Positions 9,779 through 11,617 of a DNA stretch of 64,000 bases are shown here, piece by piece. The DNA comes from an uncultured Chloroflexia bacterium (GTDB lineage Bacteria > Chloroflexota > Limnocylindria > Limnocylindrales > CSP1-4). Position 1 is the first letter of the stretch. Each line of letters begins with the position of its first letter. The stretch covers positions 192,001 to 256,000 of the forward strand of contig CAVYIM010000003.1 in the NCBI GenBank assembly GCA_963768655.1. Direction: 5' to 3'. Position numbers and translations under genes: made by a program. The notes under the pieces were generated by a model. That model was not told the origin of the DNA. It did not search any database and saw only the letters and a list, made by a program, of their open reading frames with translations.

Positions 9779-11617
9779 TCAGGCTTCGCGGATCGCGCGG
9801 ACGGCGAGACCTGCCAGACCCGCAGCCGCGGCGAGGATGCCGCACGCCGCCAGCACGATGTGGAGGCCGAAGATCTGGGCGAAGAGGCCGCTGGTGATCA
9901 TCGCGACGGCGAGCATGGCGTTCACCAGCGCCAGGCGGATGGCGATGACTCGCCCCAGCATCTCGTCCGGCGTGCGCTGCTGGAAGATAGTCTGGCTCGG
10001 CACGACGAATATGACGTTGGCGACTCCGATAACCGCCGCCAGCACCAGCGCCAGCGGCAGGCTGCCGCCCACCGAGAAGAGGACCAGGCACACGCCCACG
10101 AGCGTGAACCCGGCCACGATCGCCGGCCCCTTCGGAATACGCGCCGCGACGGCGCCGATGGCGATGCCGCCGCCCAGGAGCCCCACGCCCATCGACATCT
10201 CGAAGAAGCCGTAGGCCGTGGGCGCGTCCAGCCTCCCCAGCGGCAACGCTGCGACGAGCAAGGGGGAGAGCGCCATCAATGCCCCAAGTCCATATTCGGC
10301 GATCGTGGCCTGGACCGTGGTCGCGAACAGGACCGTCTCGTCGCGCAGGAATCGCCAGCCGGCGAGGAGATCGGCCGTCAGCGACGCGACCGCGCCGCCC
10401 AAACCGGCTGCCCTCGCCCCGGCCTCGCCGCCTCCCGCCGGAACGATACGCGGGATCGCGACCGCGGCCACGAGCGCAGCGGAGGCGAGGTAGCTCGCCC
10501 CATCGATCCAGAACGCCATGGACAGCGCCGGTCCAAGGAACGCCACGAAGAGCCCGCCCAGGCCGTAGCCTGCCAGGTCGCTGGCGGTGTCGGCTACCCA
10601 CATCGCCGAGTTGGCCGTGAGCAGGTCCTCGTCCGGGACAACCTGCGGCAGCGCAGCCGCCCGCGCCGGGCGGAAGAACGACGAGGCGACCGCGATCAAG
10701 AGGACCAGGCCGATGACGAGGCCAATGTGCAGGTTCGCAACGACCGGGATGGCGAATACCAGCGCGGCTCTGACTAGATCCGAGCCGACCATAACCCACT
10801 TGCGATTCCACCGATCGACGAGCGCTCCGGCGAGCGGGCCAACCACCGACGTGGGAATCGTCATCGCGGCGAATACGAGGCCGAGCGCCAGCGGCGATTC
10901 GTTCGTGGCTCGAGCGACGAGGAAGACGAGCGCGATCTGATGGACTCGATCGCCCAGCGAGCTGATGACCTGTCCGAGCCACATGGCCGAGAACGGGCTG
11001 TTGGTCGCCAGCCGAACGTACGGATGGCGGAGCGCCCCCATTCGGACCGACCCGACCGAAACCGACACCAGCACCGGCGCCCGAACGACCGCGGCGAAGA
11101 CGAAGAAAGCCAGCCCCGCTCCGAGCAGCAGGTCGCCGACCGACGCGACAGATTGGATGATCGGGATCGGGATCGGGATGACGTCGGCAAGTGGACCACC
11201 GTGGGCGAAGAAGCTGGCGTCCATCGGGCCGGTCAGCAGGACGTGGAAGCTCGAATGAACGGCAGTCGGATCGAAGCCGGCGGCGGCCAGACTGGGTTGC
11301 CAGACCGGCATCCAACCGCCGTTTACGACGATGGCGATGCCGTTTGCCACGGTGCCCAGGGCGGCGGCCGTCAGCCCGGGCAGGTTCCGGTTGGCCAGCA
11401 ACATGGCTGTGAGTAGGACGTACGCGACCAGGACCAGCCACATCCGAACGGCGTCCGGAATGCCACCGGCTGCGAGGGCCGCGTCCAGCCCGAATCGGGC
11501 CCCTGCAGCCATCAGCAGCACTGGCCACCAGCGCAGCCGGACATCGAGCAGGTTCTCAAGTCGCCCGCCGGCGGCCAGACCCAGGCCAAACCCCAGGAAC
11601 ACGCCGAGGGCAGGCAC
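9779..11617 (-). CDS. DUF5317-like membrane domain fused to an MFS (H+ antiporter/DHA3-like) transporter
   Basis: N-terminal GGRLENL...LRWW...ANRNLPG...ANGIAIVVNGGWMPV...LADVIPIP...SVGDLLLGAG. C-terminal MFS motifs WLGQVISSLGD and AGALVDRWNRKWVMVGSD. Confidence 0.85.
   Translation of the reverse strand: MPALGVFLGFGLGLAAGGRLENLLDVRLRWWPVLLMAAGARFGLDAALAAGGIPDAVRMWLVLVAYVLLTAMLLANRNLPGLTAAALGTVANGIAIVVNGGWMPVWQPSLAAAGFDPTAVHSSFHVLLTGPMDASFFAHGGPLADVIPIPIPIIQSVASVGDLLLGAGLAFFVFAAVVRAPVLVSVSVGSVRMGALRHPYVRLATNSPFSAMWLGQVISSLGDRVHQIALVFLVARATNESPLALGLVFAAMTIPTSVVGPLAGALVDRWNRKWVMVGSDLVRAALVFAIPVVANLHIGLVIGLVLLIAVASSFFRPARAAALPQVVPDEDLLTANSAMWVADTASDLAGYGLGGLFVAFLGPALSMAFWIDGASYLASAALVAAVAIPRIVPAGGGEAGARAAGLGGAVASLTADLLAGWRFLRDETVLFATTVQATIAEYGLGALMALSPLLVAALPLGRLDAPTAYGFFEMSMGVGLLGGGIAIGAVAARIPKGPAIVAGFTLVGVCLVLFSVGGSLPLALVLAAVIGVANVIFVVPSQTIFQQRTPDEMLGRVIAIRLALVNAMLAVAMITSGLFAQIFGLHIVLAACGILAAAAGLAGLAVRAIREA

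Follow-up and report, generated by a model that had tools for sequence, protein, structure and literature searches.

Gene organization of the DUF5317 locus

We analysed a 64,000-nucleotide stretch of DNA from an uncultured Chloroflexia bacterium (GTDB lineage Limnocylindria; Limnocylindrales; CSP1-4; assembly GCA_963768655.1, contig CAVYIM010000003.1, positions 192,001 to 256,000), hereafter the window, in which one reading frame joins a DUF5317 domain to a transporter of the major facilitator superfamily (MFS). The fusion gene closes a row of three minus-strand genes, preceded by a gene for a membrane HD-GYP protein and by a small open reading frame (ORF) (Table 1). A conserved Asp pair, a predicted fold ranked closest to that of LspA, and linked mini-peptide and HD-GYP genes together suggest that the locus encodes an undescribed peptide-processing signalling unit.

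Pfam assigns the N-terminal part of the fusion protein to DUF5317 (PF17248; residues 28-174, E-value 2.3e-19, 70.3 bits against a cut-off of 25). In the same frame it assigns the C-terminal part to MFS_1 (residues 212-560, 109.2 bits, 2.7e-31) and MFS_3 (residues 207-607, 84.1 bits, 1e-23), both above the gathering score. An Arg-rich cytoplasmic linker (residues 179-206) connects the two domains. The DUF5317 gene is single in its source genome (genome-level match 74.8 bits). The stop codon of the HD-GYP gene lies 3 nucleotides ahead of the start of the fusion gene. Its product has an N-terminal polytopic membrane domain of ∼225 residues, followed by an HD_5/HD domain (residues 244-406), and is presumed from its sequence to be a cyclic di-GMP (c-di-GMP) phosphodiesterase; residues 1-225 returned no family match in Pfam and further family scans. 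A scan for promoters and terminators found nothing exceeding shuffled sequences.

Table 1. Features of the DUF5317 locus. Coordinates are positions in the 64,000-nucleotide window, except in the last row, where they refer to the named loci.
Feature	Coordinates	Strand	Basis or remarks
DUF5317-MFS fusion ORF	9779-11617	(-)	translation, 612 aa
DUF5317 domain, aa 1-180	11078..11617	(-)	Pfam; AlphaFold2 model; VIA-align LspA ranks; conservation
MFS_3/MFS_1 transporter domain, aa 207-607, with C-terminal tail and stop codon	9779..10999	(-)	Pfam; linker charge
Membrane HD-GYP protein, 463 aa	11621..13012	(-)	Pfam HD_5 2e-37, HD 9.7e-20
Small ORF, 29 aa plus stop, candidate mini-precursor or partner of DUF5317	13081..13170	(-)	sequence; translation
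Putative catalytic segment, D145, beta hairpin and S159-x-G161-D162	11132..11185	(-)	invariant Asp; model DSSP; hhalign register; codons D145 11183-11185, D162 11132-11134
Motif G88-x3-N92 ... N99-G-G-x-M103-P104, outer end of helix 4	11306..11356	(-)	conservation counts; codons N92 11342-11344, N99 11321-11323
∼91-aa proteins between DUF5317 and HD-GYP in five standalone loci	L084:5519-5791; L087:4634-4906; L088:4461-4736; L089:4671-4943; L097:5397-5708	(+); (-); (+); (-); (+)	

The DUF5317-MFS fusion recurs in Chloroflexota and Actinomycetota

A first-pass annotation of the window had proposed that DUF5317 is fused in frame to the MFS domain. This is borne out: the fusion recurs across the class and in Actinomycetota and is not an assembly artefact. 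PF17248 and MFS occur together in 120/120 homologues among the matches listed (of 297). Within the genus, 16 of 18 other genomes contain a DUF5317 match, 14 of them in open frames of 589-645 residues and the other two in frames of 162 and 204 residues; a sister family of small genomes has none (0/12). DUF5317 was found in 64 of 201 genomes in a Chloroflexota sample, where the 19 long-frame matches (613-753 residues) all fall within two families, f1 and f3, of the same class; outside these families the domain stands alone, at ∼180-260 residues. In a sample of Actinomycetota it is present in 77 of 201 genomes, and the DUF5317-MFS_3 architecture appears in two loci (L120 and L121). A search with the single protein P0155 led to four Actinomycetota loci, and a HMMER search yielded 1,500 DUF5317 cluster representatives at E ≤ 0.001. 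Fusion to MFS_3 is limited to part of the DUF5317 family.

Actinomycetota frames of 428-741 residues with a C-terminal DUF5317 were considered as further fusions and rejected, since they contain no second domain and are probably over-extended ORFs in GC-rich DNA. Among 14 control genomes, the DUF5317 model also matches Thermus thermophilus and Thermotoga maritima, placing the family beyond Chloroflexota and Actinomycetota.

An invariant aspartate pair is predicted at the outer membrane face

We aligned 50 DUF5317 sequences spanning 20-96% identity. N92, M103, P104, D145, G161 and D162 are invariant, and N76, G81, G88, N99, G100, G101, L143, P150, S159 and G168 are at least 90% conserved. The residues singled out by the first-pass annotation (N92, N99, D145 and D162, with the two Asp 17 positions apart) are thus found where it had put them, all in the near-invariant core of the family, and the Asp pair is conserved without exception in this alignment. 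A wider count over 348 distinct rows, weighted toward relatives of this clade, gave D145 in 316/317, D162 in 298/298, N92 in 315/317 and N99 in 316/322 sequences; the surrounding motif residues are similarly constant (G88 315/316, M103 329/331, P104 329/331, S159 299/300, G161 299/299).

Lys and Arg residues are unevenly spread over the loops, with three in loop 16-30, one in 76-81 and four in 179-206, and none in loops 1-2, 50-56 and 99-160. The N-terminus of MFS transporters is cytoplasmic. Because of these loop charges and of the MFS domain following in frame after helix 5, the N-terminus of DUF5317 is predicted to lie outside, and the conserved region N99-G-G-x-M-P ... L-x-D145 ... S-x-G-D162 on the outer membrane face.

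An AlphaFold2 model of DUF5317 computed from the 50-row alignment (predicted local distance difference test score, pLDDT, 89.1; predicted template modelling score, pTM, 0.82) has five long membrane helices and an outer-face region (residues 99-160) with strands 103-106, 125-128, 147-151 and 154-158. By DSSP, D145 is located just ahead of the hairpin 147-151/154-158 and D162 within the first turn of helix 5. We infer that the two side chains should come to lie side by side, because it is this hairpin that separates them.

Comparison of DUF5317 with LspA

LspA, the lipoprotein signal peptidase (Peptidase_A8), carries an Asp dyad at the outer membrane face and is built from four helices and a beta-cradle, with 14 conserved residues; its signal peptide is thought to bind among helices H2, H3 and H4 (accessible part of PMC6952399). 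We find that the DUF5317 pair resembles this dyad: D145 and D162 are invariant, predicted at the outer face, and 17 residues apart, compared with 18 in Staphylococcus aureus, 19 in Pseudomonas aeruginosa and 18 in the LspA of the source genome. That genome keeps this ordinary LspA elsewhere (117.9 bits, with motifs G-N-x-x-D-R, V-V-D and F-N-x-A-D). Among sampled Chloroflexota genomes LspA is present in 40 of 41, and DUF5317 in 64 of 201. In both proteins a beta hairpin follows the first Asp and the second Asp opens the last helix, as far as the accessible part of the LspA study describes it, and a small residue stands ahead of the second Asp. G88-x3-N92 on the preceding DUF5317 helix resembles Gly102...Asn106 of LspA in the same partial source, a register that no method aligned.

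We searched 48,161 chains with VIA-align, using a second model of residues 50-185 alone (pLDDT 90.7). Two LspA clusters (6ryp and 5dir) rank first and third, with LspA the best structural match, and 87-90 residues aligned; the LspA part matched is residues 60-159, roughly H2-H4. A search with the LspA sequence of the source genome confirmed that both entries are named 'Lipoprotein signal peptidase'. Their dyads, read from printed alignments, are D118/D136 (S. aureus) and D124/D143 (P. aeruginosa), in agreement with the accessible part of PMC6952399. Provided that the last helix contains no gap, D162, residue 113 in the model, would fall on D136 of 6ryp and D143 of 5dir, a placement that rests on the range ends of the structural alignment.

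At the sequence level we compared a DUF5317 profile with an LspA alignment made of the genome's own sequence and 33 others from 29 Chloroflexota loci (L050 left out). The sole hhalign alignment (score 22.8, P 0.0077) pairs L-x-D145 with V-V-D and S-x-G-D162 with F-N-x-A-D. Shuffling of single columns never attained its score in 150 trials, and shuffling of twelve-column blocks did so once in 150. The sequence signal between DUF5317 and LspA is weak, and its register is the one notable feature.

The near-invariant S-x-G-D at the start of a membrane helix invites comparison with another class of membrane aspartyl proteases. In GxGD proteases each of the two Asp has a membrane helix of its own and the second belongs to a G-x-G-D motif; DUF5317 could be an enzyme of this presenilin, signal peptide peptidase or prepilin peptidase kind, with S159-x-G161-D162 as a variant GxGD. 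Its first Asp, however, does not have a membrane helix of its own but occupies an outer loop, 17 positions ahead of the second, an arrangement like that of LspA. Among the best 50 rows of either wide structural search there is no presenilin, FlaK or prepilin peptidase chain, an absence that is not decisive against the family. We regard a GxGD enzyme as highly improbable. Our favoured reading, which we think has an even chance of being right, is that DUF5317 is a membrane-embedded aspartyl endopeptidase that is LspA-like without belonging to the LspA family and that trims a co-encoded mini-precursor.

A mini-peptide gene accompanies DUF5317

The first-pass annotation had also noted a neighbouring prepeptide of 29 residues as the substrate of the presumed maturase. 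This 29-mer exists in the window and is a conserved companion gene. Its ATG lies 8 nucleotides past a GGTGA, and in the product a basic N-terminus is followed by a single hydrophobic helix, Gly-Ala and a five-residue tail, the sequence ending in GGASYRPF. Related ORFs at other DUF5317 loci are 28-48 residues long and share this layout, with a tail of 4-9 residues that is often aromatic plus basic. Most fused loci have the gene 39-76 nucleotides ahead of HD-GYP; in standalone loci, some of which have no HD-GYP gene, it adjoins DUF5317.

Of 20 fused loci, 14 yielded the mini-peptide in a strict motif scan, as did 10 of 20 standalone Chloroflexota loci; looser scans added it in L066, L072, L084 and L097. 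When a fixed motif was run over 40 loci (408,057 bp), we counted 25 sense matches versus 1 antisense match, with at most one per locus. The NCBIfam GVDTG sorting domain was a candidate identity for the 29-mer (17.7 bits, cut-off 29); it covers the hydrophobic helix only, and we treated the match as compositional.

Co-folding of DUF5317 with the small ORF, in its 42-residue form with a GTG start, gave 0.53, 0.32 and 0.43 (median 0.43), whereas the best of three controls reached 0.00. The partner pLDDT is at least 65 and the three runs share at least 92% of their contacts, for a verdict of 'weak support'. In the calibration, 58 of 80 solved complexes attain this mark, compared with 2 of 110 mismatches; values of 0.60 or below account for only 7 of those 80 and for both mismatches. 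The pairing of the mini-peptide with DUF5317 thereby gains weak support as binding, but the models say nothing on cleavage.

HD-GYP proteins are linked to DUF5317

In every one of the 21 fused loci, the gene directly upstream of DUF5317 on the same strand encodes an HD-GYP protein. Of 20 standalone Chloroflexota loci, 12 have an adjacent HD-GYP gene in the same orientation and one has it on the opposite strand. In Actinomycetota, 10 of 24 loci contain HD matches at distances of up to 5 kb. In two genomes with a standalone DUF5317, the gene upstream is itself a fusion of a membrane domain, HD-GYP and MFS_3 (L098:5572-8109(-) and L101:5486-8017(-); 846 and 844 residues). MFS_3 is thus fused to either DUF5317 or HD-GYP, and HD-GYP is linked to DUF5317; therefore, the three parts behave as one system.

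This tight linkage speaks for a different role of DUF5317, in which it has no catalytic activity and serves the HD-GYP protein as a membrane-bound partner or sensor. Its Asp/Asn cluster would then bind a cation or small ligand at the outer face, the mini-peptide would be a permanent small subunit or regulator, and the MFS domain a transporter-receptor. Small membrane proteins such as MgrB and AcrZ tune sensors or transporters in this manner. The mini-peptide gene directly precedes the HD-GYP gene where HD-GYP is present, co-folding weakly backs binding and is silent on cleavage, and the similarity to LspA is statistically weak, all of which would suit such a partner. Two invariant Asp with conserved Asn and Gly, in a hairpin-plus-helix that ranks LspA first, nevertheless fit an active site better; a processing site is what one would expect from an invariant small-residue pair that stands where the peptide emerges from the membrane and precedes a variable tail; and DUF5317 with the mini-peptide also occurs where HD-GYP is missing (L092, L096, L100, L102, L103 and L121). 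We judge a non-catalytic partner unlikely.

Five standalone loci contain a protein of ∼91 residues between DUF5317 and HD-GYP (Table 1). The three that were scanned (L084, L089 and L097) match the Os1348 NHLP-clan model (NF038399) below threshold, at 28.6-30.6 bits with a cut-off of 40, and are also sub-threshold to Pfam Frankia_peptide. These similarities hint at a link to ribosomal peptide natural products.

The N-terminal helix of the HD-GYP protein (...ASAVGLC) was considered as a lipobox-like or otherwise cleavable substrate and rejected, as neither the Cys nor Ala-x-Ala is kept among 18 orthologues. In Actinomycetota the HD-GYP protein near DUF5317 is often paired with a protein of ∼395-420 residues (L104:2459-5004(+), L109, L118, L123 and L125), which has a weak HD match only (PF01966, 7.7e-8 in L104). 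At another locus (L099:5526-7883(-)), a 786-residue GGDEF and HD-GYP protein is convergent to a standalone DUF5317, and a 38-residue ORF with the mini-peptide motif lies upstream of DUF5317.

A candidate peptidase for mini-precursors

With DUF5317 as an LspA-like peptidase, we infer catalysis, the cleavage site, the cargo of the MFS domain and sensing by the HD-GYP protein as follows. Helices 3-5 and the outer-face beta hairpin would form an LspA-like core in which D145 and D162 meet at the outer surface of the membrane, with N92 and N99 beside them. The co-encoded mini-peptide would insert with its N-terminus inside, presenting Gly-Ala where its helix exits the membrane; such a helix, which resembles a signal peptide and ends in small residues on the outer side, would be comparable to the substrate of LspA. 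A cut at or next to Gly-Ala would free a C-terminal peptide of 4-9 residues outside and leave the helix in the membrane. The fused MFS_3 transporter may move one of the two products, and the neighbouring membrane HD-GYP protein may couple the system to c-di-GMP turnover.

Several results weigh against this reading. Foldseek searches of the Protein Data Bank (PDB) with the full model and with residues 50-185 returned no LspA (best E-values 5.3 and 2.9), and structural re-alignment of the 18 Foldseek chains added nothing; a search of the ESM Atlas, with DUF5317 clusters set aside, gave no usable match. The hhalign probability is low (∼5%). One of four unrelated natural membrane-profile controls beats LspA (MFS middle, 25.9 versus 22.8; the others score 17.4-19.8), and the MFS middle also scores higher with a 279-row DUF5317 profile (27.5 versus 22.9). 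When single sequences of 142 membrane ORFs of the source genome were compared with the C-terminal DUF5317 profile, the genome's own LspA came 10th, with an irrelevant 11-column alignment, so that this comparison is uninformative. No PDB sequence was hit at E ≤ 10 with the DUF5317 alignment profile, and a Pfam scan of the 612-residue protein at E ≤ 0.1 returned only DUF5317 and MFS, with no Peptidase_A8 (PF01252). DUF5317 has five helices where LspA has four, and it lacks the beta-cradle contributed by the first outer loop of LspA, its own sheet arising from a single loop. Most of the 14 conserved residues given in the accessible part of PMC6952399 have no evident counterpart, hhalign aligning the two Asp only. 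The mini-peptide motif is rare in Actinomycetota (3 of 24 loci, one beside a DUF5317-MFS fusion). Gly-Ala is invariant in the 24-row mini-peptide alignment, an invariance that the scan pattern partly builds in, and two loci of the genus itself (L066 and L072) have Glu-Ala in its place. Lastly, the co-folding controls were not membrane helices, and a hydrophobic helix may pack on any membrane protein.

The mini-peptide site adds to these points. Signal peptidase I follows a -3/-1 rule of small residues, and a Pro right after the site blocks cleavage. The site (small, x, Ala, then Ser or Gly) fits this rule, so that the mini-peptide could be a signal peptide with a short pro-region cut by signal peptidase I. 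DUF5317 would then act downstream, clearing the helix or importing, sensing or modifying the product; alternatively, it could use an Asp-bound metal to act as a transferase on the peptide or on an envelope lipid. Seven standalone-locus peptides in the alignment, however, have Pro right after Gly-Ala. A transferase is further disfavoured by the smaller number of residues aligned (66 for ArnT, compared with 87-90 in the LspA rows), and no donor-binding motif was identified in DUF5317. We consider this pair of explanations improbable.

Further differences set DUF5317 apart from LspA. The stretch from helix 4 to the first Asp is some 35 residues longer in DUF5317, and counterparts of LspA Asp21, Lys25, Asn52, Gly54, Asp109, Arg110, Phe132 and Asn133 were not seen in the 50-sequence alignment. 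The mini-peptide has no lipidated Cys: in none of the 24 aligned sequences does a Cys directly follow Gly-Ala, the next residue being Ser, Gly, Pro or Asp. Because there is no match to the hidden Markov model (HMM), the helix count differs, most conserved residues are missing and no lipobox substrate is found, DUF5317 is outside Peptidase_A8 and may be said to work like LspA, not to be LspA. The resemblance proposed at first pass is borne out in part, by the dyad register, the outer-face location and the VIA-align ranks, but not by HMM or Foldseek searches or by the hhalign score, which is not distinctive; on the model of residues 50-185, VIA-align puts LspA first and Foldseek returns none.

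The first-pass annotation had further envisaged a processing-plus-transport unit comparable to peptidase-containing ABC exporters. At the gene level this layout is present, with a putative peptidase and a transporter in one chain beside a candidate precursor gene, and the conserved fusion and companion gene support it; cleavage of the peptide and export by the MFS domain would complete the parallel. Peptidase-containing ABC exporters combine a C39 peptidase domain with an ABC transporter, and their precursor leaders end in Gly-Gly or Gly-Ala. DUF5317 loci share a leader-cutting, here putative, peptidase fused with an exporter, Gly-Ala at the leader end and, in five loci, a neighbour that in the three cases scanned matches the NHLP clan below threshold. 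In contrast to these exporters, the putative peptidase is an aspartyl and not a cysteine enzyme, its site is predicted to face outward in the membrane rather than the cytoplasm, the transporter is MFS and not ABC, and the mini-peptide 'leader' is itself a membrane helix, whose tail may need no export.

A second parallel is found in the short hydrophobic peptide pheromones SHP and ComS, which the membrane protease Eep processes and PptAB exports (accessible parts of PMC7564271, PMC5167397 and PMC4173765). Both arrangements have tiny precursor genes whose C-terminal end is the would-be active peptide, a membrane protease, here putative, and a transporter, and a cognate signalling protein nearby. 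They differ in the protease and transporter families, in the candidate receptor (a membrane HD-GYP protein instead of cytoplasmic Rgg or ComR) and in host phyla (Chloroflexota and Actinomycetota here), and a pheromone role of the DUF5317 system would be conjectural.

We tentatively extend the favoured reading to the whole family, as the less expected outcome: DUF5317 may found a second, very distant branch of LspA-fold aspartyl peptidases acting on mini-precursors, which with HD-GYP and MFS_3 would form a peptide-to-c-di-GMP signalling module through Chloroflexota and Actinomycetota, probably reaching Thermus and Thermotoga.

Full-text literature searches for 'DUF5317' or 'PF17248', and for 'HD-GYP' together with 'Limnocylindria', found nothing in a coverage that misses most subscription journals. 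As far as this coverage goes, the LspA-like reading appears to be undescribed, as do the mini-peptide family and the peptide/DUF5317/HD-GYP/MFS_3 unit. A widespread family with no recorded function gains a concrete hypothesis: it would be an aspartyl peptidase of the outer face, for which both the dyad and a candidate substrate are specified. If it is correct, a second role would be added to the LspA fold, a target for antibiotics that is regarded as serving lipoproteins only, and small exported peptides would be tied to c-di-GMP turnover through a membrane HD-GYP protein, in phyla whose cell-to-cell signalling is little known. A class of unannotated genes of 28-48 codons would also come to light. 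Even if no cleavage takes place, the conserved association of mini-peptide, DUF5317 and HD-GYP genes, in which MFS_3 is joined to one of the latter two partners or the other, represents a new unit of gene organization.

Flanking genes in the window

Directly upstream of the gene row, on the same strand, is a gene for a regulator-like protein of 1148 residues (13452-16898 (-)) with AAA/NTPase, TPR, Trans_reg_C and BTAD domains (BTAD 5.3e-11). Downstream of the fusion gene, position 9051-9626 (-) encodes a 191-residue protein that has no Pfam match; its N-terminus is acidic, its tail is rich in Pro and Thr, and it contains a single membrane helix. It is followed by a gene for a protein-L-isoaspartate O-methyltransferase (PCMT, 1.8e-53) at 8207-9133 (-).

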